Below are positions 20,029 to 58,361 of a stretch of 64,000 nt of DNA, in pieces. Both the position numbers and the translations under genes were made by a program. The notes below the pieces were generated by a model, which worked only from the letters and a program-made list of their open reading frames with translations, did not search any database and was not told the DNA's origin. Each line of letters opens with the position of its first letter. Position 1 is the stretch's first letter. This DNA comes from a bacterium (GTDB lineage: Bacteria > Patescibacteriota > Minisyncoccia > Minisyncoccales > CG1-02-41-26), in the NCBI GenBank assembly GCA_030616605.1, contig JAUWWY010000002.1, positions 30,404 through 94,403 of the forward strand, written 5' to 3'.

Positions 20029-20053
20029 AATATTGATTTTTTGTTGTTAGAAA

Positions 20054-21778: not shown

Positions 21779-21783
21779 GAAAG

Positions 21784-22041
21784 CTAATAAGATTCAAATG
21801 GATTCTGGCGACCAATTTCTTCGGGTAAAGAGATTTTTTCAAAAGGTAAAAGTTGTTCAATTTCTGAACTCCTTAAAAATTCAAGGTCAATTTCAATTTC
21901 AGAAAGGCCAATTGAAATTTCGGGTATTGATAAGGCTTGAGGTTCTAAGATAATTTCTTTAAAAAAAACAATCAAAGAAAGAATAATTACTCCAATAACC
22001 AAATATTTAAAAATTTTGTCTTGTTCTGGATTTTCCAACAT
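21784..22041 (-). CDS. Small single-TM protein in the pilus operon (function unknown)
   Basis: 85-aa ORF with one TM helix, tightly spaced between pilO-like and pilB. Confidence 0.4.
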   Translation of the reverse strand: MLENPEQDKIFKYLVIGVIILSLIVFFKEIILEPQALSIPEISIGLSEIEIDLEFLRSSEIEQLLPFEKISLPEEIGRQNPFESY

Positions 22042-22044
22042 GTT

Positions 22045-23120: not shown

Positions 23121-23132
23121 ATTTTTTATTAA

Positions 23133-24188: not shown

Positions 24189-24228
24189 ATTTATTAATTT
24201 ATTGTATCATAAATTTCAGAATGAGAGT

Positions 24229-38948: not shown

Positions 38949-39950
38949 TTAATTTTGCTCTCCCCACCTTAAATAAGTTCCTACTGGATATTTACTTAAA
39001 AAGTTTCTTGTTCCCCTGAGGTCGAAGTGAAGATGACAACCTGTAGCTCCCAAAGTATATCCTGTATTTCCTGTCCGCCCGATAATTTCTCCTTTGGATA
39101 CTTTCTGACCTGGTCTAACCAAAATCTGAGAAAGGTGGCCATAATAACTGACTACTCCATTGGGATGCAAAATTGTAATTCTATTTCCCCCAATCCAAAT
39201 TGGGCCAGCTCTCTGAACTATACCACTAGCTACAGCCACCACTGAACTTCCACAGTTATTAGCAATATCAATAGCATTCCCGATTACCCCGTGAAGTCCC
39301 TGACTTATCCTTCCCTGACAGGGAAAGATAAAGTAAGACTCAGCTAAAGGTATTTGAGAAACCATGAGAGGAATTAAAGGCATCTTGCCTCCCGGAATAA
39401 TTAAAAGGTCTCCAATGAAAATATCATCTCGATCTGAAAGTTCATTAAGAGCAACAATTTCATCTACTTCTGCTTTATAAATTTGAGCGATTTGGCTTAA
39501 TGTATCTCCTTTTCTGGCAACATGCAAAACCCCGGAAACAGGTAAAATAATCAGCTTTTGACCCAACTTTATAACTGTGTTTCTGGACAAATCGTTTGCC
39601 CAAAGAATGGTTTCTAAAGAAATATCAAATTCCTGAGCTATAGAACTTAAATTGTCTCCTGGCTGAACAATATATTCTTCAATTTCTCTTCTATCTGGAA
39701 ATCCAGTAAAAGTTCCTAAAATTCTTCCCGAAACCAAAAAGGGCGGTCCTTCTGACTCTAAAAAGGCGCCCTCAACAACACTTAAATCAAAAACTTCAAA
39801 TATCTTTTTCTCCTGAGGAAATAAATATTGTGTTTCATCAAAGATATTCCTTTGAAATAAAAATGGTTTCTCTTTCTGGAAAAAAGAGAAAGCAAGAAAA
39901 ACAGTTAAACAAAGTATAGAAATCCCTATGTAAATTTTCCAATGCTTCAT
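38949..39950 (-). CDS. Secreted peptidoglycan hydrolase: two LysM domains plus an M23 metallopeptidase domain
   Basis: LysM motifs YIVQPGDNLSSIAQEF and HVARKGDTLSQIAQIY. M23 motifs HGVIGNAIDI and GNTGYTLGATGCHLHFDL. Confidence 0.85.
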   Translation of the reverse strand: MKHWKIYIGISILCLTVFLAFSFFQKEKPFLFQRNIFDETQYLFPQEKKIFEVFDLSVVEGAFLESEGPPFLVSGRILGTFTGFPDRREIEEYIVQPGDNLSSIAQEFDISLETILWANDLSRNTVIKLGQKLIILPVSGVLHVARKGDTLSQIAQIYKAEVDEIVALNELSDRDDIFIGDLLIIPGGKMPLIPLMVSQIPLAESYFIFPCQGRISQGLHGVIGNAIDIANNCGSSVVAVASGIVQRAGPIWIGGNRITILHPNGVVSYYGHLSQILVRPGQKVSKGEIIGRTGNTGYTLGATGCHLHFDLRGTRNFLSKYPVGTYLRWGEQN

Positions 39951-40015: not shown

Positions 40016-40825
40016 ATGAAAAAAGAGATTAAAAATTTACTAAAAGCGAAAAATATCTTACCTAAAAAGAGATTGGGGCAGAATTTTCTAATCTCAGAAA
40101 AAGTTTTAGAAAAAATTATTGCTGCCGCCCAATTAAAGCCTGAAGATACTATTTTAGAAATAGGACCGGGTATTGGTATTCTGACAAAAGAAATAGCTCA
40201 AAAAGCAAAAAAAGTTATAGCTGTTGAAAAAGACCTGAGGATGATTGATATCCTAAAAGAAAACCTAAAAGATTTCCAAAATGTAGAAATTATAAATGAA
40301 GATATCTTGAAACTTAGAGAGGAACAATGGCCTCAAGAAAACTATAAACTTGTCGCCAATTTACCTTACTATATTACAGCGCCGGTCATTCGAATGTTTT
40401 TAGAATCAGCCCATCCGCCAAAATTGATGGTTTTGATGGTTCAGAAAGAAGTTGGTCAAAGAATCTGTGCCAAACCGCCTCGAATGTCAAAACTTGCTGT
40501 TTTTTGCCAATTTTTTGGAAAGCCGGAAATTATCGATATTGTCTCAAAAAAATCTTTCTGGCCCCAACCCAAAGTTGATTCAGCTATTATAAAAATAGTT
40601 CCGCATCAGTCTCCTCTTTCAAGTCAGCTCCACCAACGATTCATCAAAATCGTAAAAGCTGGATTTTCTCATCCCAGGAAACAATTAGTAAAAAATCTTT
40701 TTTTGAATTTAAATCTTTCTCGACAAAGTGTTGAGAGATGGCTTTTGAAAAATAATATTCAACCAAGCCAGCGGGCAGAAACCTTAAGTTTGAATGATTG
40801 GCTGAACTTGACTCTTCATTCTTAA
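40016..40825 (+). CDS. rsmA: 16S rRNA (adenine1518/1519-N6)-dimethyltransferase
   Basis: LGQNFL, SAM motif EIGPGIGILT, and NLPYYIT. Confidence 0.9.
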   Translation: MKKEIKNLLKAKNILPKKRLGQNFLISEKVLEKIIAAAQLKPEDTILEIGPGIGILTKEIAQKAKKVIAVEKDLRMIDILKENLKDFQNVEIINEDILKLREEQWPQENYKLVANLPYYITAPVIRMFLESAHPPKLMVLMVQKEVGQRICAKPPRMSKLAVFCQFFGKPEIIDIVSKKSFWPQPKVDSAIIKIVPHQSPLSSQLHQRFIKIVKAGFSHPRKQLVKNLFLNLNLSRQSVERWLLKNNIQPSQRAETLSLNDWLNLTLHS

Positions 40826-42993: not shown

Positions 42994-43890
42994 CTAAAGA
43001 TTTCCTATCTTTTCCAAGATCTTCAGATCTCTCAGCTGTTCTATAGTCATTGCCTGTCCTTCTACGCCTCCCACTATGAGACCGGCTATTTCTTTGGAAA
43101 CGCCCTTTTCTATATAGGCCTCTAATCGAAGGGAAATTGCCTTTTTTTCGGACATTGCCGCTTCAGCTTCTCTGGCTTTTATTTCGGGTTTTTCCCAGGC
43201 CTTTTCAGTCTCATCGGGGAACTTGACACTCGACAACTCTATGTCCAAGCATTCTTTCGGTATACCCACTTCAAAGAAGGGGTTGCCTTCTTCGCTAAGC
43301 AAATAGTTTTTGATTTCTTCTTCAATCTCGGGTTGACTTTCTCGGCACTCTTCAGATGTCCTTTCTGACATCCGATGTCTCACTGCGCCGAGAACTGTAT
43401 TTTCAAAGAACTTACCAAACTCCTCTATATCCGCCTTCAGCAGATTCTTGATTGGAAGTCTATAATAGGCTTTTAAGAGTAGTTCTTTTCCTAAAACTCT
43501 CCCCCAATTTGTTGCCAATTGTTCTTTTGGGGAAGTTTCCTGTTCAGACACAGGCACAGGAAAAGAGTATTCCCTGTCTACTCGAGGCCATCGAAAATAA
43601 ACCCCTATCTTTACTTCCATCCGCTGACTACTCATCTCTCCTGACTTCTTTGAATACAATCCTCTAAGAATTTGATAACTTAAGTCATACTGACCGGTCG
43701 GAAACAGTTTTAATCCCTCAAAAGGCCAAAGGATAAAGCAAAGCCCAGAAGGGACTGCTTTGTCCGGCTTGGCAAATCTCGTTTTAACTGCCTGAACAGG
43801 AGTATCAGTCGTTCCGACCTGCCTCACACATTTTAGCAACCAAAATCCCATAAAGACGATAAGTACGGCAATTATCAGCCACTGATTCAT
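42994..43890 (-). CDS. SPFH/Band-7-like membrane-anchored protein (antisense to the surrounding cluster, visibly more G+C-rich)
   Basis: N-terminal TM helix followed by V.QVG...V.TRF.KP...V.SGLCFILWPFE, which resembles the start of an SPFH domain. AAGGAG RBS present. Confidence 0.45.
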   Translation of the reverse strand: MNQWLIIAVLIVFMGFWLLKCVRQVGTTDTPVQAVKTRFAKPDKAVPSGLCFILWPFEGLKLFPTGQYDLSYQILRGLYSKKSGEMSSQRMEVKIGVYFRWPRVDREYSFPVPVSEQETSPKEQLATNWGRVLGKELLLKAYYRLPIKNLLKADIEEFGKFFENTVLGAVRHRMSERTSEECRESQPEIEEEIKNYLLSEEGNPFFEVGIPKECLDIELSSVKFPDETEKAWEKPEIKAREAEAAMSEKKAISLRLEAYIEKGVSKEIAGLIVGGVEGQAMTIEQLRDLKILEKIGNL

Positions 43891-44510: not shown

Positions 44511-44924
44511 ATGAGATATAAAGTACCAAAGTTTTTGGAAAGGGAAACAAAATTTTTCGCCTTCTTAACTTTTAAACAACTGGCTTTGGTGGGAGGAGCT
44601 AGTTTAATTTTGCTTGCCTTATATTATATCCTCCCAAAATCTATTTTTTTTGTTTCTCTTTTTGTCATCGGCGGAATAGTTTTCAGTATGGTTTTTGTTA
44701 GAGTTGAAGGACTTTCTCTTTCTCAACTTGTACTTCAGTTTTTTGGTTATTTAACTGGTCCAAAAAACTATATCTGGCGAAGAAAAAAAATTACCTCTCC
44801 TATCAAATTAAAGGAAAAAAAGGAGGTTAAAAAAGAAGAAAAAGAAGAAGAATCTCCATTAAAAGTTTCTCCGAGAGGTAAATTGCAGAAATTATCTTCA
44901 AAAATCGAAATGGGACTTCGTTAA
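44511..44924 (+). CDS. PrgI/VirB3-like small membrane protein
   Basis: MRYKVPKFLERETKFFAFLTFKQL followed by 2 TM helices. This matches the PrgI-family pattern usually found immediately upstream of VirB4-type ATPases. Confidence 0.55.
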   Translation: MRYKVPKFLERETKFFAFLTFKQLALVGGASLILLALYYILPKSIFFVSLFVIGGIVFSMVFVRVEGLSLSQLVLQFFGYLTGPKNYIWRRKKITSPIKLKEKKEVKKEEKEEESPLKVSPRGKLQKLSSKIEMGLR

Positions 44925-44928
44925 AATT

Positions 44929-45579
44929 ATGTTTCAAGCTTCAACCCAACAATTTTTAGAATTTTCCCAAATCAGAGAAGGAGTGGTTATTCTTAAAAAT
45001 AAAGCCCTAAAAGGAATTTTGCTGGTTTCTTCAATAAATTTTAATCTGAAATCAGAGGATGAACAAAAAGCAATTATTTACCAATTCCAGAATTTTCTGA
45101 ATTCTTTGGATTTCCCTTGTCAAATTGTTGTCCAATCAAGAAAACTGAATATTACCGGCTATTTTGACAAATTAAAAAAACTTGAAAGAGCTCAAGAAAA
45201 TGAGCTTTTGAAGATTCAAACCGCTGAATATCGAAAATTTATTGAAACCCTGGTTAAAGAAGGAACAATTATGAGAAAAGAGTTTTTGGTTGTTGTCCCT
45301 TTTAGTGTTTCTGAAGCAGCCGGCATAAGTAAAGAATTATTTAAAGGGCTCTTGGGTAAGAAAAAAGATTTCTTTGGATTAGGAGAAGAAAATTTCAAAA
45401 GATGTCGAGAACAACTCTGGCAAAGAATGGAATTTGTTGCTATAGGTTTGCGAAGATGCGGCTTAACTGCTGTTCCTTTAACAACCTATGAATTAATTGA
45501 ACTCTTTTGGAGTTTACATCATCCAAAACAAGCCGAATTTGGCTATTACCCGGAAATTCTTCCTGAGCTTATTCGCTAA
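44929..45579 (+). CDS. Soluble hypothetical protein resembling the N-terminal (non-ATPase) domain of VirB4-type proteins
   Basis: The pattern I.EG.V.L.N...GILLVSSINF.L.SE.E resembles the start of VirB4/TrbE-class proteins. No Walker motifs. Confidence 0.35.
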   Translation: MFQASTQQFLEFSQIREGVVILKNKALKGILLVSSINFNLKSEDEQKAIIYQFQNFLNSLDFPCQIVVQSRKLNITGYFDKLKKLERAQENELLKIQTAEYRKFIETLVKEGTIMRKEFLVVVPFSVSEAAGISKELFKGLLGKKKDFFGLGEENFKRCREQLWQRMEFVAIGLRRCGLTAVPLTTYELIELFWSLHHPKQAEFGYYPEILPELIR

Positions 45580-45669
45580 CAATTTCTAATATTAAAATAA
45601 CTACCCTAAGTACTGTTAATTTGCGAACAAAGTGAGCAAATTAACGGGCGGTGGGTGGGGCTGTGGAAT

Positions 45670-47460
45670 ATGCAATTGCCATTTTTAAAAAAGAAAAAAG
45701 AAAAAACAACCCTAGAATTAGAATTCAAACCAGAAGAAATTCTTATCAAAGATATTGTTGCCCCTCCCTCAGTTGAAATCAGTCAAAATTATTTAAAATT
45801 AGGAGAAAGATTTTCTAAAACTTTTTTTATTTTCTCTTACCCAAGATATTTATCAACCGGCTGGATGTCACCTGTTATTAATTTAAGCCACCCTTTGGAC
45901 ATTGCCTTTCATATTCATCCAATAGATTCAAGAACTATTTTAAAACAGCTCCGAAAAAAAATAACTGAGGTCGAAGCTGAACTTATAGAAAGAAAAGAAA
46001 AGGGACTTATTAGAGACCCTATCCTAGAAACAGCTTACAAAGATATTGAGGGTCTAAGAGATGCTCTCCAAACAGCAAGCGAAAGAGTTTTTAGATTAGG
46101 AGTTTATATTACTATTTACGGAGACACTAAAAAAGAATTAAGAGATGTTGAAACTAAACTGAGGTCAATATTGGAATCAAGATTAATTTATCTGAAACCA
46201 ACTTATTTAAGAGAAAAACAGGGTTTTCTATCAACTGCTCCTTATGGACTTGACCAAATCTTAGTCCACATTCCAATGAATACTGATCCTTTATCAAGTA
46301 TTTTTCCTTTTGTTTCACCAGACCTTAGCGCTAATGAAGGAGTTTTATGCGGTATTAACAAACATAATAATTCTTTAGTTTTGTTTGACCGATTTACTTT
46401 AGAGAATGCGAATTCAGTTTGTTTCGCTAAAGCCGGCTCAGGAAAGTCGTATGCTCTAAAATTAGAAGTTCTTCGTTATTTAATGCAGGATGTATCCTGC
46501 ATTATTATTGACCCAGAGAACGAGTATCAGTTTTTAGCTGATGCTGTAGCTGGTTCTTTCTTTAATATCTCTCTGACCTCAGCCCATCATTTAAATCCCT
46601 TTGACTTGCCAAAACCAAGAGAGGATGAAAAAACCGAAAATGTTTTAAGGTCAAATGTGATAAACCTGGTTGGTCTAATGCGAATAATGCTTGGGGGATT
46701 AAGTCCAGAAGAAGATGCAATTATTGATAGGGCTTTAAGTGAAACTTATGCTGCCAAAGACATCACTCCAGATTCTGACCCTTCAACCTGGCCAGAAAAA
46801 ATTCCCTTAATGTCAGATTTTCAAACAGTCTTGGAGGGTATGGAAGGGACAGAATCTTTAATAGAAAGGGTAAGAAAATTCACCACTGGCTCTTTTGCTC
46901 CTTTTTTCAATAATCCCTCCAATATTCAGATGGATAAAGACCTACTTGTCTTTGGAATTCGGGATATGGAAGACGAATTAAGACCAATAGCAATGTTTAT
47001 TGTTTTAAGATATATCTGGAATCAAGTTCGCTCCTCTTTAAGAAAAAGAATTCTATTAGTTGATGAAGCCTGGTGGATAATGCAAACAGAAGAAGGAGCT
47101 TCATTTTTGTTCGGTATTTGCAAAAGGGCAAGAAAATACTGGCTTGGAGTTTCAACTATTACTCAAGATGTTTCAGATTTTATGAAATCAGATTATGGTA
47201 AACCAATTATTACCAATTCTTCCTTACAGCTTTTAATGAAGCAATCTCCAGCTACCATTGATTTTGTCCAAAAAACTTTCAATTTAACTGAAGGAGAAAA
47301 ATATCTTTTGTTAGAATGTGATGTCGGAGAAGGAATTTTTATTGCCGGACAAAAACGGGTGGCTATAAAAGTTATTGCTTCTTATGCCGAAGACCAAATC
47401 ATTACCAGTTCTCCAGAAGAAGTCAAAAAAATAAAAGAAGCCAAAAAACGATTAAGATAA
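45670..47460 (+). CDS. VirB4/TraC-like type IV secretion ATPase
   Basis: Walker A AKAGSGKSY and Walker B LLVDEAWW. The N-domain YPRYLSTGWMSPVINL is typical of Gram-positive-type VirB4. The track ORF starts at the GTG at 45655; the ATG at 45670 is preferred. Confidence 0.8.
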   Translation: MQLPFLKKKKEKTTLELEFKPEEILIKDIVAPPSVEISQNYLKLGERFSKTFFIFSYPRYLSTGWMSPVINLSHPLDIAFHIHPIDSRTILKQLRKKITEVEAELIERKEKGLIRDPILETAYKDIEGLRDALQTASERVFRLGVYITIYGDTKKELRDVETKLRSILESRLIYLKPTYLREKQGFLSTAPYGLDQILVHIPMNTDPLSSIFPFVSPDLSANEGVLCGINKHNNSLVLFDRFTLENANSVCFAKAGSGKSYALKLEVLRYLMQDVSCIIIDPENEYQFLADAVAGSFFNISLTSAHHLNPFDLPKPREDEKTENVLRSNVINLVGLMRIMLGGLSPEEDAIIDRALSETYAAKDITPDSDPSTWPEKIPLMSDFQTVLEGMEGTESLIERVRKFTTGSFAPFFNNPSNIQMDKDLLVFGIRDMEDELRPIAMFIVLRYIWNQVRSSLRKRILLVDEAWWIMQTEEGASFLFGICKRARKYWLGVSTITQDVSDFMKSDYGKPIITNSSLQLLMKQSPATIDFVQKTFNLTEGEKYLLLECDVGEGIFIAGQKRVAIKVIASYAEDQIITSSPEEVKKIKEAKKRLR

Positions 47461-47462: not shown

Positions 47463-47822
47463 ATGGCTCAAGAAGATAAAACAGGAATATTCTTTTCTCC
47501 GGTTGGAGTTGCGATGATGTCTTTAGCTGTCATTTGTGATGTTGGCGAGCTCGTTGTTGAACTGATCCCAGTTGTTGGACAAGCTTTATCAATAGCAATT
47601 GATTTTATAGCTCTGATTCTTATTGGCGGTTGGATGTATTTTAAATCAGGAGAGGTTTCTGTTCCTAAAAAAACAGCTGGTAAAATAGGAAAAATGACAA
47701 AATGGACTAAAAGATTAAAATGGCTGAGACCTGTATGTTTAGTTATTGAGATGATTCCAATAGCTTCCAGCATTCTTCCTTTGTGGATAGTAGCTGTCTA
47801 TTTTGAGCTAAAATACGGCTAA
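47463..47822 (+). CDS. Small polytopic membrane protein (T4SS-like cluster)
   Basis: 119 aa with 3-4 TM helices. Its stop overlaps the next ATG (TAATG). Confidence 0.5.
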   Translation: MAQEDKTGIFFSPVGVAMMSLAVICDVGELVVELIPVVGQALSIAIDFIALILIGGWMYFKSGEVSVPKKTAGKIGKMTKWTKRLKWLRPVCLVIEMIPIASSILPLWIVAVYFELKYG

Positions 47823-50800
47823 TGGTAAGAGTAAAAAAAATTTTTTTATTTTTTCTTCTGATTATCTTGCTTTTTCAAGCCAGTTCTGTTTTTGCTTTGG
47901 AAATAAAATATCCCTCCCTGCCTGGAACTGAATCACCAAACCAGATTGAAGAAAAAGTAAGAGTGGGAATAATCTCCAAAGAAGATAAACTCCCTCTTTA
48001 TATAAATTATTTTGTCCGCCTGATTTTTTTGATTGCTCTTACTATAGCAATCATTGTAATAATTTATGGCGGACTTTTATATTTAATTTCCGGAGCTAAA
48101 CCTTCTGTTTTGGTTATTGCCAAAAAACGAATATCTCAAGGACTCTTGGGACTTTTGATTTTAGTTTCTTCTTATCTGGTTTTAGCGGTAATTAATCCCC
48201 AATTAATGGTTTTTAAAAAAGTTTCTCCTCCCTTAGAACCTGGTATTGTTTATACTCCTGTCCCGACCAATCAAGCTACTTTTTTAGAAGTTCCTTTAGG
48301 GACTTTAATTGAAAGAATAATTAATGAACTTGATGAAACCACCACAACCGTTCAATGGGGAGAGGTCCATCAAATTGAAATTCCTATTTTAGAAATTATA
48401 ACTACTTTAACAGATGCAATTTCAACAACTGAGTCCTTAAGAGATGAACTTAGAAACTGTAAGTGTGGAAAATCAGAATATGACATTGAATGGGATGGTT
48501 TAAAAGGAAAATGTGTTGGAGGAATGAGTGAAGAGGATGAAGAAAATTGGTGGCAAAAGGTTTGGCAAGAATTAGAAGAAGAAATAAAAGGAGGACAAAA
48601 TGTTTGTCTAACTCGTTGTGAGGATTGCGGAACAATTTGCGATTTAGAAGAAATAAAAGAAAAAAGAAAATATCTCCTGGAACTTTTAGCTAAACTTCAA
48701 ACTCAAAAAATAAAACTTTCTACTGACCAGATAGGTTTAATAGAAAAAACCTTAGGAGGTAATGCCGGGAAGTTTTTACTCTCTGAATTATCAGGAGGGA
48801 GCTTCCAAGGAGATTTTTTCAGCCAAAAACAGGCCTTAGAAGAACAAGGTTTTGAAGTAATTGTGGAGAGACCAAAACAGTTTCCCGAAAGTAAAATAGA
48901 TCCTTTCACTTTTTATGCTCCTTTAATGGGTGATATTCTTCCGTCCGAGATAACAAGAAAAAATCAAGAAACTTATCGAGAAAGCCAAAGATTAAGTATA
49001 TTTGCTGTTCTTGCCCAACTTAGCCTAGAAGACATTGAACAAATGATTCAAGACTGTCTTAGTTCAGCTTTTGGCCAGGGTGAATTCATTCTTGCCAAAG
49101 ATGACCTCTTAGAAATTGTTGAAAAAGCTTTAAAAGAGGGAACGGCTAATTATTTAAGTGAGACTTTAGCTGAAAACAGTTTGGATTATAGCGGAGCATT
49201 TTTGAAAAAATTAAGAGAGGGAATAAATACTGAAGTGGCAAGCTCAACAATAGTAAACTGTCAAAAAGCAGGGTTAAACCAAGAACAATGTAGACAGCAA
49301 AATATTCCCCCTCATTTTCTTTCCAATAAATTAGCTGAAGTTTTAACCGAAGATATAAGAGAAAAACTCCCTTCAGAAATTCAAAAATTTCTCAGAGAAA
49401 ATTTGAGGCAATTCATTTTTGACCAGGATTTAAATGAATTTTTAGATAAAGACATGGTTGAACTTCTTGATGGAGTTCTTCAAGGAGCTTTAAGTAAAAG
49501 TTTAGAAGACCAGATTCCTTTTTTGAGAAAAAATTTAGAAAAAAGAATGACAGACTTTATACCAATTCTTGTTTTAGACCCTCTCCAAACCATTGATTCT
49601 TTTTTGGCAAAATATTTAAAAAACCTTAAGAAAATAGTGGATTCTCAAATAGCAGATTTGATTAAAAAATTAGGTGACCTACTCAGCCAACCGGCTCTAT
49701 CTTTAATAGATTCTTACAGACAAGATAATCCTACTCTTTTCCGGGAAAATCTTGAAATGGAAGCTTGTTGGGACCTTTTTAGACAAGGATATTACTACAA
49801 TTACCCTCCTTATCCTTACTTAGGGCAAGGGGAGTGTCTTAAAGCAAGCCCTGGAGATGTAAATGATTTTGATGTTGGTCAAGGACCATTATGGGATAAC
49901 CTTGTTATAGCTGCAAATCTCGAACATTTCAACGTTCCTCTAGGACTTGAAGTTTCTGACATTTGCCGATTTAATTATTGTTGGCAGGAAACAGAAGAAA
50001 TAGGAAAAAGATGTCAAGAAGATCCATGGGTAAGGCCTGGCGATTTAAATCCGACCAGAGAAAATATGAGCAGATGGGGTAGAGAATTTATAGTCGGCTT
50101 GATTAATTTTGGCGAGCAATTTATGGTTGCTCTAATTCAAACCACGGTTTACACCTTAACCAAATATACCCAGGTTTGGGTTGAAGATGAAATTATTGCT
50201 CCTCTTCAGCCATATCTTACTCAACTTTCCGATTTTCAGAAAAAATTACATGAATTTTTAACTTCAACTATTAAACAGCTCCTGCCTCAACAAATTGCTA
50301 CTTATTTAGGGAGCAATATAGAGCAAATCTTAGCAGACATCTGTAATAAAGCAAAAGCAGACCAAACAATTAAGCTTTACCAGGGAATGACTGAGATAGA
50401 AATTAGCAAAGATGTAGGTGAGTGGGCCTGTAATCTTGATAAAGAATTCCACGACAGTCTGCTTGATAACTTAGAGGAAACTGGTGAATGGGGTGAAAAA
50501 ATAGTAGAGGGTCTTAACACTACTGTTGAAGAGTTTATTCCAGCCTCAATCAGAGAAAAATGGCTTTATAGTTCTTTTGCTGAAATTCTTTGGCCCGAAG
50601 TAACAAATATTGAAGCTCTTGTTAAAGGAACTCCCAAACAATTTATTTGTGGAGAACTTATGGCAGATTATCATCCTAATTTAGTAAAAACAGGAGTGGA
50701 GCCATCAGTTTTTGATAAATGCCAGTCTCTAAAAATAGCTGGTCTTATTCCTTATTTGGACAAAACAAACCCTCTATGGCTAGGGATGTCTGATGAAAAA

Positions 50801-52837
50801 AAACAGGATTATCTTACCCATTGCTATTTTATCTGGTATGGCTGTCAAAATCCTTTCTCTGGTTGGGATCAAGGAATAGGGACGCTTATTAAAAGATTTT
50901 TAACTACTGAGTGCAACAGAGTTGATGGAAAAGTATTTATAGAATGTAACCAGGCAAAATGTGAAAACTGTCTTGGAGAACTAAAAAACGAATGCACAGC
51001 TTGTGATATTTTAGTTGATAATTCCGTCGCTTTTACTCTTTTCAAATATGGAATTGAAGAAAAATATGGTCAAACATCACCAGACCCAGAAAGCACAGAA
51101 GCTGAAGATGAAATAACAGCTTATCAATGGTTAGTAGTTGTTTTCCCTGATTTAATAAGCCAGGTTGATAAATTAGCCAAAGAAAGAGGTTTGGAAGGAA
51201 AATGGAAGTTAGGAGACCCCTCACCAAGACAAGAAGCAATCGACGCTGACAAACCTGATGATTTAGACTTAAAAACTACAGCTTTAGCTCTTGTCTCCTG
51301 GTTTAGCGAACAGAAAACTGTCTATCAAGTTCTGACCAGTCCTTATTTTGGAATAATGCATTATTTAAAAGGTGAAGATTACATAGGAAATAATTTCTTA
51401 GCTAGAACCCCTTATCAACTTCTTCACGATGACCTTTGTCTTAAAATAAAACAAGATTTTAAAAAAGATTATCCAGATTGGACTCTTGAAAAAATAATAC
51501 AAAGACAATGGAAAGAGATAAGTGGAGCTCTCCCTTATTCAATGGAGAGCCTGGAAAAACCTACCCTGGCCGAAAGCTTAGAGATTCTTTTAACTATTAA
51601 AGAAAGCGAAGTTCCCTGGGAACGCAGAAATCAATATCTAACCTGTTCATTATTAGATTACAAGCCGGCTCAGATTTTAGGTCTTGACCAAAAACTTATC
51701 CGTTATGTCCGACCAAAAGAATACCAAATTTTATTTCAGTTAATTAAGGATGAATTAACTAATGAAGATAGACCAGAACCTTTAAATAAACTTCTCAATT
51801 ATCTCTATGGACAAACCCCGGTTACTGCTCTTCGCGACATTGGAAATAGATTAGAAAACCCGGAAGAAAGAGAGGATATACTAAGATTTGCTGACTTTTT
51901 GGATACTAAAATTGGAGACCAAATTAATCAAGGTCCAATGGCTGAAAAAATTATTATCCTTATTTTTAGAGCCCTAGGAATAGAAAATTTACTTAATCAA
52001 AGGCTTGGCTGGGATGGATGGAATATTCTCCAACAAATTTTAGCAAAAACTCCAGTTCAAATAATTGAAGATTATCTTACTCAACAACTTATTAGCAATA
52101 AAATAACAGAAGCAGCTTCTATTATGAGTCTATTGGCAGAAAAATCTATTTTGGGTGAACCTTATGTAGATACTTTGGGTAAATGGCTTCATTTAACTGA
52201 ACCTATCTATGAATTGTTTATAGCCAGAGAAAAACTTGATGAAAAAATCAATGATGCCGTAAGGCAAACCCAAGTAGTTATTCAAGATAGTTTTAGAAAA
52301 GTCTTAATAGAATATCCTAAGGCCGGTCTCAACTGGCTGGCTAAAACTTTAGCTAATCTTGTTGGAATAGAATTGGGAGAAAAAGCAGCTGACCAAATGG
52401 CCGGGGTTTGTCGAGATGCTATAGCTGTGGAACAAATAAATGAACAATGTCCAACAGGAGAAGTTTATAAAAAAGAAACTAAAGAATGCTGCTCTCTGGG
52501 AAAGGGTTTGGTTTGTCTACCAAAATGCCGGGAAAAACCAACTGATGAAGATTGTAAAATAGGGGAAAGCGAAACAACAAAAAATGAAACAAAATATTGC
52601 TGTTTTGATGATAAATGCCGAATATGCCGGGAACCTAAGAGTACAGGAGAAACAATTGAATGTAAAAGAGAAGGAGAAGAGAAAACAGGGCAACTTTGCT
52701 GCAAAGAAAGAATAGTAAAAGATGACCTCTGCTGTGTAAATATTATGGATTGTATTATTGAAAAATTTACTTTTCATTTAGAACTTTTAGGTGATGTTCT
52801 TATTGATGGACCTCCGCTTAATGAATTAACCAGATAA
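47822..52837 (+). CDS. Giant (1671 aa) secreted protein: N-terminal VirB2/TrbC-like pilin module fused to a huge ectodomain with a Cys-knot-like C-terminus
   Basis: Signal peptide plus two TM helices, ending ...SYLVLAVINPQL. This module is homologous to the N-terminus of the 58374 product. About 17 Cys in the last ~115 aa. Confidence 0.6.
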   Translation: MVRVKKIFLFFLLIILLFQASSVFALEIKYPSLPGTESPNQIEEKVRVGIISKEDKLPLYINYFVRLIFLIALTIAIIVIIYGGLLYLISGAKPSVLVIAKKRISQGLLGLLILVSSYLVLAVINPQLMVFKKVSPPLEPGIVYTPVPTNQATFLEVPLGTLIERIINELDETTTTVQWGEVHQIEIPILEIITTLTDAISTTESLRDELRNCKCGKSEYDIEWDGLKGKCVGGMSEEDEENWWQKVWQELEEEIKGGQNVCLTRCEDCGTICDLEEIKEKRKYLLELLAKLQTQKIKLSTDQIGLIEKTLGGNAGKFLLSELSGGSFQGDFFSQKQALEEQGFEVIVERPKQFPESKIDPFTFYAPLMGDILPSEITRKNQETYRESQRLSIFAVLAQLSLEDIEQMIQDCLSSAFGQGEFILAKDDLLEIVEKALKEGTANYLSETLAENSLDYSGAFLKKLREGINTEVASSTIVNCQKAGLNQEQCRQQNIPPHFLSNKLAEVLTEDIREKLPSEIQKFLRENLRQFIFDQDLNEFLDKDMVELLDGVLQGALSKSLEDQIPFLRKNLEKRMTDFIPILVLDPLQTIDSFLAKYLKNLKKIVDSQIADLIKKLGDLLSQPALSLIDSYRQDNPTLFRENLEMEACWDLFRQGYYYNYPPYPYLGQGECLKASPGDVNDFDVGQGPLWDNLVIAANLEHFNVPLGLEVSDICRFNYCWQETEEIGKRCQEDPWVRPGDLNPTRENMSRWGREFIVGLINFGEQFMVALIQTTVYTLTKYTQVWVEDEIIAPLQPYLTQLSDFQKKLHEFLTSTIKQLLPQQIATYLGSNIEQILADICNKAKADQTIKLYQGMTEIEISKDVGEWACNLDKEFHDSLLDNLEETGEWGEKIVEGLNTTVEEFIPASIREKWLYSSFAEILWPEVTNIEALVKGTPKQFICGELMADYHPNLVKTGVEPSVFDKCQSLKIAGLIPYLDKTNPLWLGMSDEKKQDYLTHCYFIWYGCQNPFSGWDQGIGTLIKRFLTTECNRVDGKVFIECNQAKCENCLGELKNECTACDILVDNSVAFTLFKYGIEEKYGQTSPDPESTEAEDEITAYQWLVVVFPDLISQVDKLAKERGLEGKWKLGDPSPRQEAIDADKPDDLDLKTTALALVSWFSEQKTVYQVLTSPYFGIMHYLKGEDYIGNNFLARTPYQLLHDDLCLKIKQDFKKDYPDWTLEKIIQRQWKEISGALPYSMESLEKPTLAESLEILLTIKESEVPWERRNQYLTCSLLDYKPAQILGLDQKLIRYVRPKEYQILFQLIKDELTNEDRPEPLNKLLNYLYGQTPVTALRDIGNRLENPEEREDILRFADFLDTKIGDQINQGPMAEKIIILIFRALGIENLLNQRLGWDGWNILQQILAKTPVQIIEDYLTQQLISNKITEAASIMSLLAEKSILGEPYVDTLGKWLHLTEPIYELFIAREKLDEKINDAVRQTQVVIQDSFRKVLIEYPKAGLNWLAKTLANLVGIELGEKAADQMAGVCRDAIAVEQINEQCPTGEVYKKETKECCSLGKGLVCLPKCREKPTDEDCKIGESETTKNETKYCCFDDKCRICREPKSTGETIECKREGEEKTGQLCCKERIVKDDLCCVNIMDCIIEKFTFHLELLGDVLIDGPPLNELTR

Positions 52838-52843: not shown

Positions 52844-55800
52844 ATGTTTTTCAAGAAAAAGTATTTCAAAAACACTCTTTGCTGGATAGTTATGGTAGCT
52901 CTTTTGTTACAGTCTTTTCCTTTGATAGTTCAAGCTAATTTTTTAAAAGACCTTTTAAAAAAACTTAAATTGCCGGATGAAATCAAACTAGATGAAAAAG
53001 GAGATATTATGTTGGGAGATTGGCGCTTAGCAAAATGTACTTATAAGGATAAAACAGGAAAATGTGTTAATATTTTTTCAGATTTTGAGCTTGGTCAAAG
53101 TCAAGTAAGCTTATTAAACGAACAGGGAAAACCGGATATTATTCAACCAGAGATTCCTGAAATCTGTGAATTAAGAGTCCCTTTGTCCCCGGAAGAAGAA
53201 TTATTAACTAAAGAAGAGAGACGGTCTTTAAGTAAGGCTTGTTCTGATTTGAGAAGAATCCAAAGAGCAGCAGTTAATCAGGTTTATTTTGCTAAAAAAA
53301 TTTTTAACAAGACCGACCCGCTTTCTGATTGTTTGTTTGTAAAAAATTGTAAATCATCCTGCAACCTCCGTTTTGGAGAGATAAGTTATACAATTAGCAT
53401 TCTTGACATCGCTGCTATGTTCCTGCCAATTGGCTGGGTAAACACTCTTAGAAAGATTCTTAGCTTTCTCTCTAAACTCAACAAAATCCGGGCTATATTT
53501 GAACAACTTAAAACTCTTTTAACAGATGGGGTTAAAGTTTTGAATGATATTTTTGAACAAGCAGCCTATCTTAAAACCTTTTATGACTCTCTAAAAAACA
53601 TTTTAAGTATGGTAGAAACAGGGACGAGTTTCGGAAAACTTCTTAAGCATTACAGTGATAATCTTTTTAAGTTTACCAGAGCGAAATCTGAAGCCCAGAG
53701 TTTAATAAGAGACGCTCAATTAGAAACCTTATATTTAATAGATGACTTGAAATACGAGCCAGGAATAGCTTTTCTTTTTAAAGACGATGCTGATTCAAAA
53801 GCAAAAAGGGGAGAACTTCAGGAAATAATGGATGATTATCTTTCTCACCTTGAAACCCCTGACCAACTTACTGGTAGATTAAAAGGGAATAGAGTACCTG
53901 TTCAAACAACCATTGATAGAGAACAAAATAATCCTCTTGACCTTTCTTGTCCTGTGGAACCAACGAGTTGTTATATTTCTTACTCAAGCATACCGGATTA
54001 TTGTTCAGCTTCTCTTTCAAATGGAATCGTTACTTTGGAATGTCCGGAAATAGAATATGAAATTACCTGCACTTCAACACGAACCGCCTTTGGAGACTAT
54101 AAAAAATCTTATACTTTTGAACTCGTAAAGGGTCCAGCAAGTATAAGTACTCATACAGAAATATGCGCAGAGCAAGACGAATATTGGCAACAAGTTTGTC
54201 GTCCTTATACATATTGTGATATTCCAGAGGAAATTCTAGTGGACTGTTCCTCTGCTGAGGTAGGCTGCTACGATAAGTGCGATTTTGGCTGTAATCCATA
54301 TGCATTTAGCCAATATTGTACAACAGAATATTGTGAAACACTTAGAAAGCAATGTTATAAGCTTCAAACTCAAGGATGGGGTTGGCCTTCTAGTGAAGGA
54401 GGTTGTCAGTCATACCCCTATAAATATTTTTGGGAAGGAGTGCTTTACAATACAGGCAAGAACTGCGAGCTTTCCTATCCTCATGAGTTTGGAGAGCATA
54501 GGGTTTCCTGTGAACAAATACCAGGCTCGGTTCGTATCTCCTGCCCAGGAGACTGCACTTTTTCCTGCGCTTCGCCAGGGAATAATTGGTTTAATATCCT
54601 TTATGGTAATCAAGGTATTTATGAAAATATCAGGTCGTTATCTAACACGGTTGATATGCTTATAGGTATCCCTTGGAATATCAATAATCCTGAACAAGGC
54701 TCTTTCATGAAAGAGCTTTTATTAACAGCAAATGACGCTCTAAATGAAGTAATATCTCCTCTTAGGCCATCTCTTTCTTCATTAATCAGTTCTCTTCCAA
54801 AATACTTGGCAACTACAACTCATGCTTTTCCAGGTGACACTAAATACTGGGCAACCACAAGTGAGAGTATTTCAGCTAACACTTATGAAGAAGCTTTAAC
54901 TCAAGCAAGGGCAACTTGTGGATACGATGCTGAACTCATTTTCTTTGACTGGGATAGCGAAATTCAAGTTATCCAAAAAGCTGAATTAGAATTATTAAAA
55001 CAATTCCTTGAATATCTTTTAACAGCTACAACAGCTACAGTGATTGAATCTTTAAATAAGCCATTAGTCAACTTTGAAATAAAAAAAATAGAAGCTGAAC
55101 TTAAAGCTGCAGCAGCTTCAACCACATTTTCAACAGCTTCAAGCACACTTAGACAATTAAAAGGAGAATTAGAAGTTCTCAGACAAGATTTCTCTGATTT
55201 GAATGAGGATATTAAGTATTGGAGCCAGCAGGAAGCCATCTCAACTCCAAGAGCTTATATCTCAAACCTTATTGACATAAAAAATAGTTCCAAAAACATT
55301 TCTGAAGGTAGTCTGTTAGAGAGCAAAAATATTCTTTCTCAACTTATTGCTCTTGGAATAACTAACCAAAACTTTATCGATCTCTTGGGAGAAATCAGTC
55401 TTCTTTTGGGAGAAATAGAAAACTTTCTTGGTTCTTATGAATGTCCGGGTCAAGGATTTCTTGGTCAGCTTAAGTGCTTTGAAGAAACAAATGGAAAAAC
55501 CTTTGAAGAAATAGAAAAGTTCCTCGAAGCTATTGAAGGACTTGAACAAACAGCTTTAACTTTTGATGAAATAAGAAAAAATGTTGTTCAAATTAAACCT
55601 ACTCTTGAAATTCGCCCTTTAGAAGTAGAGGATATAGCAGACCTTGATAGTTTTGAGGAATTTGGAGAAAAGCTTTGGCAAAGCCCGCTTTCCTATCTTG
55701 ATGACTTATTCTATGGCGAGAAAGGTATAGAAAATTACTTGGCTGATATAAAAAATGACTTAGAAAATTTAAAAAATATTGATATTCTTAGTCAACAAGC

Positions 55801-57313
55801 CTTGGATGAAATAGAAAAAATTAAAGATGAAAAATGCCCAACTTTAGAGCTTCTGATTTTTGGTAATGAAGATTTAAGGAATTGCTGTCATGCTTTAGAC
55901 TTTATTTTAAAACGCGACCCAGAAAACATAGAAGAAGAATGTAATGACCCGGCAAACACTTGTCTGCTTAGTGGTAATGAATTGATTACTGGTTGCCAAT
56001 TTAATCAAGAATTAACTGAATTAATCTCAGATTTAACTGGAAATGAATTGGCTGATGATTGTCAGTTCCGAGATGCATTAACCTTAGCCCTCATTGAACA
56101 AGAACTTACCTTAGCAGACCTTGAACTAATAGAAAATCTTCCAGAATGGTGGGAAAATAATGTATGCGAAGAAATTCCAAAAAAGATACCTGATGTAATA
56201 GAATGTAAAAGACGTGTAGGATGTCACATGACATTTAAAGACAATCCTGCTTATGAAAATTGTCTATCTTTTGCAGCAACCCTGGATATCCAATACATAA
56301 CAAAACTATTAACAGAAGAATTTAAAGACCTATGTATTAAATTGAATTATCAAAAAGCCCTAAAAAAAGATTGTAATGATTTCTTCCTTTTGAAGAAAGC
56401 TTTAAAAAATGAATGCGGAACTGATGAAAATTGTCTAAATCTAAGGACAGAACTTTCAGAGAGTTGTATTGGTTGTGATGGCTGTCTCTGGGAAGCGATA
56501 CCAGATTTAACTGAGAAAGAAAATGGGGAATATAAAGAATTAGACAAAATAAGATTTGTCTGCACTACTAAATTAAGCGATATCAGCACTCCCTTAGAAG
56601 AGATTCTAAAGGTTTATTCTGTGCTTTTAGGAATAAAATCATCAACCAGGTTTGTTCGGGGGATAGGAACTTCTATTGAGGATGCAAAAAAAGCTTATGA
56701 AAGCGCCCAGAAATTAATAACAATGATAAAAGAACTCCCAGAAGCACTTAAGGAGGGTTGGGAAGAACCAGACGTGGAAAGTGGTTTTAAAATTGGCATG
56801 CCGGAATGCATACCCAGGCCGGCTGTCAGTTATATTGACAATAAGGAAGTAACCGGAATTGAAGGAGGGCCGGTTTGCCCAAGAATTAATTATCTTTTCT
56901 CAATAATTGAATCTAATTTCGCTCTAATGAGACAGAGTTTAAACCGTATTAATCTGCTTCGGAAAGAGGAAAAATGGTGGGGTTTTGAAATCGGCCAAAT
57001 AAGAGTAAGTCTTATAAAAACCTATCCTAATTATAATGGAGGAGAGGGTCCTTATTTTGAAAAAGTTGATTCTCTTTATAACCAAGCAGAAGCTATAAAA
57101 ACGAGAGCTCAAAATCTTTGGGCTATAGCTACGGCTGTAAATTTTGCCAACACCAACTGCACCTGCGGCCAAAGTTTTTGCAAGTTTCCCTTTTGTATTT
57201 CCGGCATTCCTTTAACCCTTTCTCCTTTAAAAGACCCTTATTGTTATTTAATTTATATTCTCCGTTATGTTCTTCTACGTCAAGCCGAAGTCTTGGAAGG
57301 TCACATAAAATAA
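52844..57313 (+). CDS. Giant (1489 aa) secreted Cys-rich protein, function unknown
   Basis: N-terminal signal peptide. Dense Cys clusters at roughly aa 360-570 and near the C-terminus. No motif I recognise. Confidence 0.55.
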   Translation: MFFKKKYFKNTLCWIVMVALLLQSFPLIVQANFLKDLLKKLKLPDEIKLDEKGDIMLGDWRLAKCTYKDKTGKCVNIFSDFELGQSQVSLLNEQGKPDIIQPEIPEICELRVPLSPEEELLTKEERRSLSKACSDLRRIQRAAVNQVYFAKKIFNKTDPLSDCLFVKNCKSSCNLRFGEISYTISILDIAAMFLPIGWVNTLRKILSFLSKLNKIRAIFEQLKTLLTDGVKVLNDIFEQAAYLKTFYDSLKNILSMVETGTSFGKLLKHYSDNLFKFTRAKSEAQSLIRDAQLETLYLIDDLKYEPGIAFLFKDDADSKAKRGELQEIMDDYLSHLETPDQLTGRLKGNRVPVQTTIDREQNNPLDLSCPVEPTSCYISYSSIPDYCSASLSNGIVTLECPEIEYEITCTSTRTAFGDYKKSYTFELVKGPASISTHTEICAEQDEYWQQVCRPYTYCDIPEEILVDCSSAEVGCYDKCDFGCNPYAFSQYCTTEYCETLRKQCYKLQTQGWGWPSSEGGCQSYPYKYFWEGVLYNTGKNCELSYPHEFGEHRVSCEQIPGSVRISCPGDCTFSCASPGNNWFNILYGNQGIYENIRSLSNTVDMLIGIPWNINNPEQGSFMKELLLTANDALNEVISPLRPSLSSLISSLPKYLATTTHAFPGDTKYWATTSESISANTYEEALTQARATCGYDAELIFFDWDSEIQVIQKAELELLKQFLEYLLTATTATVIESLNKPLVNFEIKKIEAELKAAAASTTFSTASSTLRQLKGELEVLRQDFSDLNEDIKYWSQQEAISTPRAYISNLIDIKNSSKNISEGSLLESKNILSQLIALGITNQNFIDLLGEISLLLGEIENFLGSYECPGQGFLGQLKCFEETNGKTFEEIEKFLEAIEGLEQTALTFDEIRKNVVQIKPTLEIRPLEVEDIADLDSFEEFGEKLWQSPLSYLDDLFYGEKGIENYLADIKNDLENLKNIDILSQQALDEIEKIKDEKCPTLELLIFGNEDLRNCCHALDFILKRDPENIEEECNDPANTCLLSGNELITGCQFNQELTELISDLTGNELADDCQFRDALTLALIEQELTLADLELIENLPEWWENNVCEEIPKKIPDVIECKRRVGCHMTFKDNPAYENCLSFAATLDIQYITKLLTEEFKDLCIKLNYQKALKKDCNDFFLLKKALKNECGTDENCLNLRTELSESCIGCDGCLWEAIPDLTEKENGEYKELDKIRFVCTTKLSDISTPLEEILKVYSVLLGIKSSTRFVRGIGTSIEDAKKAYESAQKLITMIKELPEALKEGWEEPDVESGFKIGMPECIPRPAVSYIDNKEVTGIEGGPVCPRINYLFSIIESNFALMRQSLNRINLLRKEEKWWGFEIGQIRVSLIKTYPNYNGGEGPYFEKVDSLYNQAEAIKTRAQNLWAIATAVNFANTNCTCGQSFCKFPFCISGIPLTLSPLKDPYCYLIYILRYVLLRQAEVLEGHIK

Positions 57314-57326: not shown

Positions 57327-58361
57327 ATGTTAAAAAAATCTAAAATTTATCTTGGTTTCTTGATAGTAATTTTAATCCCAATTCTTTTAGTTTTTGCTTT
57401 TTTAGCAAATAAAAAAACTTTGGTTTCTGCTCAAGCCGGTCTGGTTTGTGACGAACCAATTCCAACTGGAGAAAGCCTTGAACAAGGTTTAGAATTAATG
57501 AGTGATGCTTATCGCGAACTCCAAAATCTTAGAGACTACCTTACTTTTGCTATTGAAGAATTTCAATCAGAAGTTAGTGACTTATACCAAGACGCGGAAG
57601 AGGTTTGTAATTTCTCAGTCTGTCGGCCCCAGGTTATTGATATTGCCCCGGCTCTTAAGCTTAAGGTTTCTTATATTTTCGGCACTAAAACTCTTATTGG
57701 AGCCCATATTCCTCTCTGTACTCCAAAAGATTGTGCTGGAAACCCTTGTCCTGACCTTGATGACCATCTTGAAGTATTAGAAGCAATGAAAAATGGAATA
57801 AATGGTTCTTATGAGATTATCAGGGATATTTTTACTCAAGAGACAGTTCCAATTACTATGGATATAAAAAGGGAAACAGAGGAATTGGGTCAGTTTATTA
57901 CAAAAGCGGAATTAGCCAGAAGAAAATTAGAATTGAGCCGAGAGTGGCTTCATCCTACAGCTGAAGCACAAAAAAGAAGTTGTGCTTTATCAGAACTGGA
58001 AAGAAAAAAAGTTGATGCTGGAGAAATAGGGGATAGATATCCAATGAGATGCACTGATGCTTTAAGCCAGGGACTTTATTGGCCAAGAGCTTGGTCAGAA
58101 AGTTGTCAAGATGATTGTAAAGAAGGCCCAACCGAGGAGTGTAAAACTTGTCTTGGACAAGACCCGGGACTATTTGCATCTGTTTTAGCTAAAATTAACT
58201 TTAAAATCTATGGAATTTGTGGAACTTTTTGTCAAGAAGAACTCAGTTTAGAATGTTTAAATTGTCTTTGTGCTGACTTATCTGAAAAAGAATGTACTAC
58301 CTGGCTCTGCGGCGGAAATTATAATAATTATGTTTGCTGTCATGAGACTCCTTTAGAGTAA
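57327..58361 (+). CDS. Secreted Cys-rich protein (344 aa), function unknown
   Basis: Signal/TM N-terminus. C-terminal CKEGPTEECKTCLG...CGTFC...CLNCLC...CTTWLCGG...VCCH. Confidence 0.55.
   Translation: MLKKSKIYLGFLIVILIPILLVFAFLANKKTLVSAQAGLVCDEPIPTGESLEQGLELMSDAYRELQNLRDYLTFAIEEFQSEVSDLYQDAEEVCNFSVCRPQVIDIAPALKLKVSYIFGTKTLIGAHIPLCTPKDCAGNPCPDLDDHLEVLEAMKNGINGSYEIIRDIFTQETVPITMDIKRETEELGQFITKAELARRKLELSREWLHPTAEAQKRSCALSELERKKVDAGEIGDRYPMRCTDALSQGLYWPRAWSESCQDDCKEGPTEECKTCLGQDPGLFASVLAKINFKIYGICGTFCQEELSLECLNCLCADLSEKECTTWLCGGNYNNYVCCHETPLE

Follow-up and report, generated by a model that had tools for sequence, protein, structure and literature searches.

Pilin-type hairpins at the N-termini of very large proteins encoded in a type IV secretion operon of Patescibacteria

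Background

Type IV secretion systems (T4SSs) of Patescibacteria were surveyed by Quinonero-Coronel et al. 2025 (PMC12102498): their genes are located near dnaA, rnpA and ksgA, they are related to mating-pair formation systems of the MPF-FATA class, and they include TrsD, PrgI and members of the family PF18895, described as "VirB2-like pilins". For the epibiotic life of cultivated Patescibacteria, few machines are known to be indispensable; the T4SS is among these, and the pilin arrays are essential for epibiotic growth of Southlakia epibionticum ML1 (PMC10633639). The published pilins of Patescibacteria are small and are encoded in arrays of 2-11 genes. A pilus composed of short VirB2-like pilins is a speculation found in reviews (PMC12857230). 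Here we describe a T4SS operon in which the pilin-type module forms the N-terminus of two much larger proteins, A (1671 amino acids, aa) and B (569 aa). The operon is located in a stretch of 64,000 nucleotides, hereafter the window, from a Patescibacteria genome of the order Minisyncoccales (GenBank assembly GCA_030616605.1, contig JAUWWY010000002.1, positions 30,404 to 94,403).

Proteins assembled from a conserved membrane part and an added domain have been described in two other settings. Modular pilins of type 4 filaments, such as PilB and PilC of Streptococcus sanguinis (PMC8179133), consist of an N-terminal assembly module with a grafted domain and act as minor adhesion subunits. A and B would resemble them in this plan, but they belong to an unrelated family and machine, and the type 4 proteins have one long helix and a class III signal peptide that bears an N-methylation motif; no N_methyl (PF07963) match, the mark of such a signal peptide, was found in A or B. 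Extended VirB6 proteins (PMC12857230) are a second parallel, as a small T4SS membrane component is enlarged there by big hydrophilic domains; VirB6, however, is a polytopic protein of at least five helices, and the A/B module is a two-helix pilin.

In the published survey any PF18895 match is counted as VirB2, and the accompanying table gives the coverage of the hidden Markov model (HMM) without protein lengths (PMC12102498), so that extended forms have probably entered the VirB2 counts unremarked. Text searches of the survey (PMC12102498) and of the T4SS review turned up no mention of fused large domains, and no description of a conjugative-type pilin with a large C-terminal domain was found in the open-access literature. 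While the pilin family, the secretion system and its location near the origin are already known, the extended architecture and its implication for surface display are new. The reading that we favor, with a probability of about 0.5, is that A and B are modular VirB2-like pilins, the hairpins of which dock or oligomerize at the VirB3/VirB4/VirB6 machine, and that they serve as minor, terminal or ring-forming display subunits.

Results

The N-terminal module shared by A and B

A preliminary description of the window, made from the sequence by eye, had aligned the N-termini of A and B and proposed a common motif string. The similarity is real: in a BLASTP comparison of the N-termini, residues 12-143 of A align with residues 9-131 of B with 55 identities in 135 positions (41%, E = 5e-22), the alignment closely follows the proposed string (I.YFV, G..YL.S, P, AK.RI, LGL.IL, SYL.L, INPQL.V and E.GIV), and the coordinates assigned to both modules were correct. 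In an all-against-all BLASTP comparison of the large operon proteins, the similarity between A and B was confined to this N-terminal stretch. The module occurs in two copies, as had been claimed, with no third among all six-frame open reading frames (ORFs) of the window; this count rests on three profiles, built from the two sequences, from 216 modules and, independently, from 120 short pilins, and all three agree.

The claimed topology of a signal peptide, a short loop and two transmembrane helices fits hydropathy, structure prediction and loop charges. Each protein has three hydrophobic segments, all of them N-terminal (residues 1-30, 57-94 and 103-131 in A; 1-29, 44-79 and 91-119 in B), and the AlphaFold2 (AF2) models place helices at residues 53-89 and 94-124 of A and at residues 45-77 and 82-112 of B. 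In hhalign, the signal peptide of A falls at the position of those of the short pilins, and it is predicted to be cleaved. Among the homologous modules scored, the inter-helix loop has on average 2.8 K+R vs 1.5 D+E, and the mature N-terminal segment 1.4 K+R vs 3.6 D+E. Because the loop is basic and the mature N-terminal segment acidic, the loop is predicted to be inside and both termini outside; since no hydrophobic segment follows the hairpin, the remaining 440 residues of B and 1530 residues of A are predicted to be extracellular. All cysteines, 46 in A and 8 in B, are found in these C-terminal parts, and many of them are invariant among orthologues, which fits an oxidizing, extracytoplasmic location.

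Assignment to the PF18895 pilin family

The family PF18895 (T4SS_pilin) matches B with 28.9 bits at residues 43-103, above the curated cut-off of 26.6, and the modules of 38 out of 40 relatives are matched as well. The match in A, which spans residues 55-120, stays below this cut-off, with 18.7 bits for the whole protein and 23.7 bits for residues 1-150. A profile of the core hairpin was used to collect stand-alone proteins, and the best 120 of these, 69-144 aa in length, are all PF18895 members; several carry the NCBI name "pilin", and one sits in an array of five short pilin genes (locus L020). When the profile of A/B-type modules was compared with these 120 short pilins by hhalign, the two matched with a probability of 99.6% and E = 8e-24 (reversed control, 3%), and the alignment of 103 columns extends from the signal peptide through helix 2. 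Conversely, an HMM built from the 120 short pilins alone recognizes A with 49.8 bits (residues 4-129) and B with 57.3 bits. On these profile comparisons, the A/B module can be firmly assigned to the Patescibacteria PF18895 pilin family.

With the described PF18895 pilins, the two proteins share the signal peptide, the two-helix hairpin, a GG..Y.TS.G...AK loop region and a setting of PrgI/VirB3, TrsD and VirB4 genes near dnaA. In contrast to the described members, which have a length of about 100-145 aa and stop shortly behind helix 2, A and B add an LExxYPxxPG motif, an INPQL motif and 440-1530 further residues. The lengths of the stand-alone relatives agree with the earlier statement that classical pilins are short, and A and B are atypical extended forms. 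Two marks characterize the extended sub-family: LExxYPxxPG just after the signal peptide, in which Y30 of A is nearly invariant and P31 invariant across a 40-module alignment, and INPQL, placed where helix 2 ends on the outer side.

The relation to the classical conjugative pilins is less direct. The preliminary description had recognized in the module the topology of VirB2/TrbC pilins; what stood in the profile-profile comparison was the membership in the Patescibacteria T4SS pilin family (99.6%), and what did not stand was a direct profile similarity to VirB2/TrbC, the probability being 0.3%, equal to reversed controls, against seven VirB2/TrbC proteins from annotated plasmids (a narrow set, mostly from Alphaproteobacteria). 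Neither A nor B matches PF04956 (TrbC) at E <= 0.1, and 7 of the 40 relatives' modules match it weakly (best E = 1.3e-3). The short Patescibacteria pilins, compared with the same seven proteins, align over both helices with a probability of 72% and E = 3.5e-5 (reversed control, 0.2%), and about a dozen of them bear both labels, PF18895 and PF04956. Judged by sequence, the tie of the module to classical VirB2/TrbC thus appears to be indirect and to run through the short Patescibacteria pilins. A and B have in common with VirB2, TrbC and TraA (PF04956) a signal peptide predicted to be cleaved, a helix-loop-helix with a positive loop, termini on the same side and a gene beside VirB3/VirB4. They differ in the absence of direct sequence or profile similarity, in being 5-15 times longer and in their monoderm host; also, no cyclization or trimming machinery was seen with A and B.

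Another distant relative is the Mbov_0395 family pilin-like conjugal transfer protein of Mycoplasma integrative and conjugative elements (NCBIfam NF045849), the profile of which has 80 positions, consistent with a small protein. Residues 42-108 of B align with profile positions 6-72 with 27.3 bits (E = 2e-6), below the cut-off of 40, and A shows no match to this family. The alignment with the hairpin core of B fits the reported MPF-FATA descent (PMC12102498). The short Patescibacteria pilin P0189 reaches the cut-off (40.7 bits vs 40). This likeness suggests that pilin-like hairpins exist in monoderm, MPF-FATA-type systems, which would run counter to the assumption of a necessarily diderm origin for Patescibacteria pilins. 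In a Foldseek search of the full B model against the PDB, no conjugative-pilin chain was found at the hairpin, which retrieved generic helical hairpins only (E > 2).

Extended and tandem architectures

A word-index search with residues 1-135 of B returned one match, and an exhaustive search with the module profile was used instead. It identified 29,582 cluster representatives at E <= 1e-3, including 4,501 at E <= 1e-10. Among the best 150 representatives, 123 consist of one N-terminal module followed by an extension. The extensions in this set have a median length of 404 aa, a 10th percentile of 202 aa and a maximum of 1939 aa; about six proteins are nearly extension-free, and some of these look like fragments of A-type proteins. 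The remaining 27 are tandem arrays of 2-8 modules, in which the second and later units begin at the LExxYP position, without a signal peptide, and each unit has its two ends on one side of the membrane. These "poly-pilins" include P0020, P0112, P0003 and P0017; some of them, such as P0020 with six near-identical hairpin units and P0112 with eight, are devoid of any ectodomain. In P0012 (461 aa), three pilin modules are followed by a C-terminal CESAG...GLFQ motif that resembles a lytic-transglycosylase (VirB1-like/SLT-like) domain, although this part has no Pfam match, and a weak 3D-domain match was observed in P0099.

The ectodomain of B is common to about 75 cluster representatives (an identical copy of B being P0002), and the ectodomain of A follows the module in six. 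Eight orthologues of A were identified, of 1651-1943 aa and with 38-57% identity; seven cover 99-100% of A, and P0154 covers 59%. The two copies are therefore not a peculiarity of one genome, and both architectures are conserved families. Since classical members of the pilin family have only 69-144 aa, we also considered that assembly errors or frameshifts had fused a short pilin gene to a downstream gene. Nothing specific speaks for such an artefact, and we regard it as hardly credible, given that full-length orthologues with the same architecture and 38-57% identity come from independent JGI, ENA, NCBI and Logan assemblies and that A and B are both uninterrupted ORFs. The fused architecture of A and B is real and conserved.

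Conservation of the hairpin and the INPQL motif

The hairpin is the most conserved region in both groups of proteins. In A-type proteins its mean pairwise identity is 60%, compared with about 41% in the ectodomain, and in B-type proteins 51%, compared with 27-38%. Such a constraint is not expected of a passive anchor. The tandem concatenation of hairpin units, for its part, is expected of protomers that pack side by side.

The preliminary description had also considered that the module might be cleaved off, with INPQL marking the processing site. A, B and the tandem proteins would then be polyproteins, cut at or after NPxL into a pilin of normal size and a free secreted ectodomain. The C-terminally trimmed, TraF-processed TrbC pilin of RP4 is a precedent for such an event. 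INPQL is nearly invariant in extended and tandem forms and is missing from the six short pilins examined, which end about 10 residues after helix 2, and the linker is flexible in the AF2 model, the predicted local distance difference test score (pLDDT) being below 50 at residues 118-122 of B, after the hairpin. However, the linker behind INPQL is the least conserved segment (27-31% identity), and the residues behind NPQL are bulky and hydrophobic instead of forming a small-x-small pattern, with no signal peptidase I site; for these reasons we lean against cleavage at this position. Moreover, helices are commonly capped by N-P at their ends, each module is strictly co-inherited with one ectodomain family, as fits a functional unit, and no Pfam match to a signal-peptidase or TraF family was found among the operon and window proteins scanned, which represent part of the window ORFs. 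Taken together, processing into a pilin and a free ectodomain is improbable.

Two specific candidates were rejected. Signal peptidase I cleavage after helix 2 lacks small residues at suitable positions, and NPQL does not qualify as a sortase-type sorting signal, since the motif follows a helix and is not placed ahead of a C-terminal anchor.

Predicted ectodomains

The AF2 model of B has a mean pLDDT of 87, with values above 90 over most of residues 130-569. The top 12 Foldseek matches of this model in the PDB are gamma-crystallins, and microbial beta/gamma-crystallins were retrieved as well; the crystallin matches have E-values from 5e-4, a probability of 1.0 and template modelling scores of 0.6-0.74 when normalized to the target. 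Five cysteines are nearly invariant in the B ectodomain family, and its consensus strings FNDKAxxIEIKN and FxDNIxSIxIxGxCLVVLFEN appear to resemble beta/gamma-crystallin sequence motifs. The ectodomain of B is accordingly predicted, from the model, to have a Greek-key, beta/gamma-crystallin-like fold. In microbes, beta/gamma-crystallin domains often occur in surface proteins as modules that bind Ca2+.

The corresponding model of A (residues 1-1200, from 11 sequences) has a pLDDT of 58.5 and a predicted template modelling score (pTM) of 0.28, which is too poor for a fold search. At this low confidence it is mostly alpha-helical, with several very long helices, including one of 100 residues (746-845), and with cysteine-rich knots.

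Operon and chromosomal setting

The window is the region around the origin of a chromosome that is low in GC, as is typical of Patescibacteria, with ksgA at 40016-40825 and dnaA at 62132-63505, upstream of which rnpA, yidD, yidC and jag are encoded on the minus strand. A and B belong to one plus-strand operon between ksgA and the jag/yidC cluster (Table 1). The gene order is VirB6/TrbL-like, Band-7 (on the opposite strand), 169-aa protein, PrgI/VirB3, a 216-aa TrsD/TraC-like protein, VirB4, 119-aa protein, A, 1489-aa protein, 344-aa protein and B, so that A is located two genes and B five genes downstream of VirB4. This layout matches the published layout of Patescibacteria T4SSs (PMC12102498).

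Table 1. Coordinates of A, B, their parts and neighboring genes in the window
Feature	Position	Strand	Remarks
Gene A, 1671 aa: pilin-type N-terminal module and predicted ectodomain of ~1530 aa	47822-52837	+	single uninterrupted ORF
A residues 1-25, predicted Sec-type signal peptide	47822-47896	+	basic n-region RVKK, hydrophobic core, VFA then LE; read from the sequence
A residues 26-58, mature N-terminal segment with LExxYPxxPG motif	47897-47995	+	conserved
A residues 59-128, pilin-family core: helix, basic loop SGAKPSVLVIAKKRISQ, helix, INPQL end	47996-48205	+	
A residues 129-1671, linker followed by large helical Cys-rich predicted ectodomain	48206-52834	+	linker poorly conserved
Gene B, 569 aa: pilin-type N-terminal module and predicted ectodomain of ~440 aa	58374-60083	+	single uninterrupted ORF
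B residues 1-131: predicted signal peptide (SFA then A), LEYGYPELP motif, hairpin, INPQL	58374-58766	+	
B residues 130-569, beta-rich predicted ectodomain with beta/gamma-crystallin-like domains	58761-60080	+	AF2, Foldseek
VirB6/TrbL-like candidate, polytopic, 686 aa	40850-42910	+	weak TrbL match of 19.8 bits, below cut-off; multiple hydrophobic segments
SPFH/Band-7 protein inside the secretion operon	42994-43890	-	
PrgI/VirB3-like protein	44511-44924	+	PrgI 30.7 bits vs cut-off 27
TrsD/TraC-like protein	44929-45579	+	syntenic genes
VirB4-type ATPase	45655-47460	+	Pfam P-loop_TraG 83.4 bits; also AAA_10, DUF87
Small membrane protein, 119 aa	47463-47822	+	3 hydrophobic segments, very basic loop; between VirB4 and A
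Cys-rich secreted or anchored protein, 1489 aa, 58 Cys	52844-57313	+	N-terminal hydrophobic segment only
Cys-rich secreted or anchored protein, 344 aa, 21 Cys	57327-58361	+	N-terminal hydrophobic segment only
LysM-LysM-Peptidase_M23 protein	38949-39950	-	immediately upstream of ksgA and of the T4SS operon

The whole operon is syntenic in the related loci L004, L011/L012 and L013/L014, including the order of A, the giant protein, the mid-size protein and B and the flanking ksgA, LysM-M23 and dnaA genes. The recurring order in L004, L011 and L013 is KsgA, VirB6-like, PrgI, TrsD-like, VirB4, (small protein), A, giant, mid-size, B, jag/yidC/rnpA and dnaA. A, the giant protein, the mid-size protein and B are encoded by a conserved cassette of four genes, with genes of similar size at the same positions in these three loci; the 1489-aa and 344-aa proteins have no family match in Pfam or NCBIfam. 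The syntenic counterparts of the PrgI and TrsD-like genes in the relatives bear PF12666 and PF26593, and the L011 counterpart of the VirB6-like gene matches TrbL_3 weakly. The GenBank taxa of five related genome loci are Candidatus Nealsonbacteria, Paceibacterales and, as a generic name, uncultured Candidatus Saccharibacteria.

Pilin-family ORFs in the window and in eight related loci all have 355-2080 aa, and module-bearing proteins co-occur in these loci, 2-3 per locus. No short pilin gene was found in the 64-kb window or, in the eight related loci, within 8-10 kb of the module-bearing gene. This finding bears on an explanation different from the one that we favor, namely that the hairpin has been exapted as a mere membrane foot, and that A, B and the two proteins encoded between them (1489 and 344 aa) make up a fixed complex that spans the wall or lies at the surface, without polymerization or extraction from the membrane. 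Such a complex would take the place of the missing VirB8/9/10-type parts or serve as an adhesin. Besides the lack of short pilins in these loci, the conservation of a cassette of four Cys-rich extracytoplasmic proteins directly behind VirB4 speaks for it, and the very long helices predicted in A, such as 746-845 in the low-confidence model, would suit a stalk through the wall. Relatives join the module to other envelope-active domains, as in the SLT-like C-terminus of P0012 and the weak 3D-domain of P0099, and VirB8 homologues are rarely detected in Patescibacteria (PMC12102498). On the other hand, the hairpin is more conserved than the ectodomains and keeps the family-wide loop motifs of free pilins, and the tandem concatenation suggests hairpin-hairpin packing. 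We consider the fixed complex somewhat unlikely, noting that it overlaps with the modular-pilin reading and that the main difference is whether the assembly leaves the membrane.

Several smaller observations concern the neighbors of A and B. The ATG start codon of A at 47822 overlaps the stop codon of the preceding ORF (TAATG), by which the 119-aa protein is translationally coupled to A. This protein has no match in Pfam or NCBIfam; its position is held in relatives by a gene for 155-157 aa, with none called in L004. It was tried as a hidden pilin and rejected, since it matches neither the module nor the short-pilin profiles. For the SPFH/Band-7 gene, L004 has a Band_7 gene at the same position, and L013 has an opposite-strand gene there with no Pfam match recorded. 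The LysM-M23 gene is present in the same place in L004, L011 and L013, and its product is a candidate for a wall-remodelling enzyme of the secretion system, a VirB1 substitute; VirB1 homologues with M23/LysM domains were noted in the published survey (PMC12102498).

Other systems in the window

A complete-looking type 4 filament locus occupies approximately 13600-24200 on the minus strand and encodes PilM, PilO, PilB-like and PilT-like ATPases, PilC, a prepilin peptidase and at least five N_methyl pilins. The window therefore contains two different pilus-related systems, this locus and the T4SS operon. The N_methyl matches in the window belong to genes other than A and B, at 13.9-17.7 kb. The ORF at 15068-15838 (minus strand) combines a GIY-YIG nuclease domain (residues 1-71) with an N-methylation motif (residues 85-109), and represents a genuine fusion or else a pilin gene that starts at an internal codon downstream of a GIY-YIG remnant.

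The minus strand at 5731-11481 encodes a protein of 1916 aa with one hydrophobic segment, at the N-terminus, and with a Laminin_G_3 (concanavalin-like lectin) domain. Its C-terminal domain, Peptidase_S74 (endosialidase-chaperone), is of a kind known from phage tail fibres and from surface fibres that cleave themselves. The neighboring gene at 4924-5697 encodes an IS200-like transposase.

Discussion

In the mechanism that we propose for the modular-pilin reading, A and B would be exported by Sec, and signal peptidase I would cut after VFA in A and after SFA in B. The hairpin would then be embedded in the cytoplasmic membrane, its basic loop facing the cytoplasm and its two ends the exterior, and the C-terminal part would be extracellular and disulfide-bonded, as a beta/gamma-crystallin-like structure in B and as a long helical, cysteine-knotted rod in A. 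Instead of being a passive anchor, the hairpin would act as an assembly module recognized by the VirB3/VirB4/VirB6 machine, and hairpins would pack side by side, those of A with those of B, and perhaps also with short pilins from genes at other sites of the genome. A and B may thereby enter a surface structure, such as a short pilus, a stalk or a ring, as minor or terminal subunits, the large domains of which would probably face the host cell.

The geometry of known pili bears on this mechanism. Conjugative pili have five subunits per 13.2-Å layer. In solved conjugative pili, such as that of R388 with a width of 82 Å and a rise of 13.2 Å, the loop of the hairpin points into the lumen and the two termini are exposed to solvent (10.1101/2024.03.04.583355), and a C-terminal passenger is therefore geometrically possible in principle. 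From the R388 dimensions and the five-subunit layer we calculate an outer surface of about 6.8 nm2 per subunit, and we estimate that a compact domain of 48 kDa needs about 18 nm2 and one of 170 kDa more. Because of this discrepancy, stoichiometric fibres consisting only of A or only of B are sterically implausible.

Besides this constraint, several observations weigh against A and B as modular pilins. No fibre has been seen for any Patescibacteria T4SS. With no short pilin gene in the vicinity of A and B, a conventional pilus in which they are minor subunits has no identified major subunit in these loci. At the level of the module itself, the comparison with the seven VirB2/TrbC proteins was negative, as described above, a search of the module profile against all PDB sequences retrieved no pilin (best E = 0.54), and the monomer model of B shows the conserved LExxYP segment as disordered. 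On balance, the evidence leans towards intact modular minor or structural subunits, in preference to the cleaved precursors or stoichiometric fibre subunits between which the preliminary description had left the choice.

For the pilin family, the results reveal a large conserved branch in which hairpins are combined with big, disulfide-rich domains, predicted to be at the surface and encoded directly behind VirB4. A census of "VirB2" based on PF18895 consequently mixes three architectures: short, tandem and extended. The ectodomains of A and B are concrete candidates for host recognition, and the operon yields a testable model for how a monoderm secretion system without VirB8/9/10 crosses the envelope. 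If the hairpins assemble, the modular-pilin principle reaches from type 4 filaments to conjugative-type pilins. More tentatively, it may be proposed that Paceibacteria-type Patescibacteria have a T4SS surface structure built of VirB2-like hairpins that are covalently loaded with giant passengers, from an operon without a conventional short pilin. If this were true, A and B would be the first modular conjugative-type pilins, the tandem poly-pilins would supply the same assembly with building blocks that are linked beforehand, and an ultrasmall epibiont would use secretion-driven display to present host-recognition or host-attacking domains of up to ~170 kDa.

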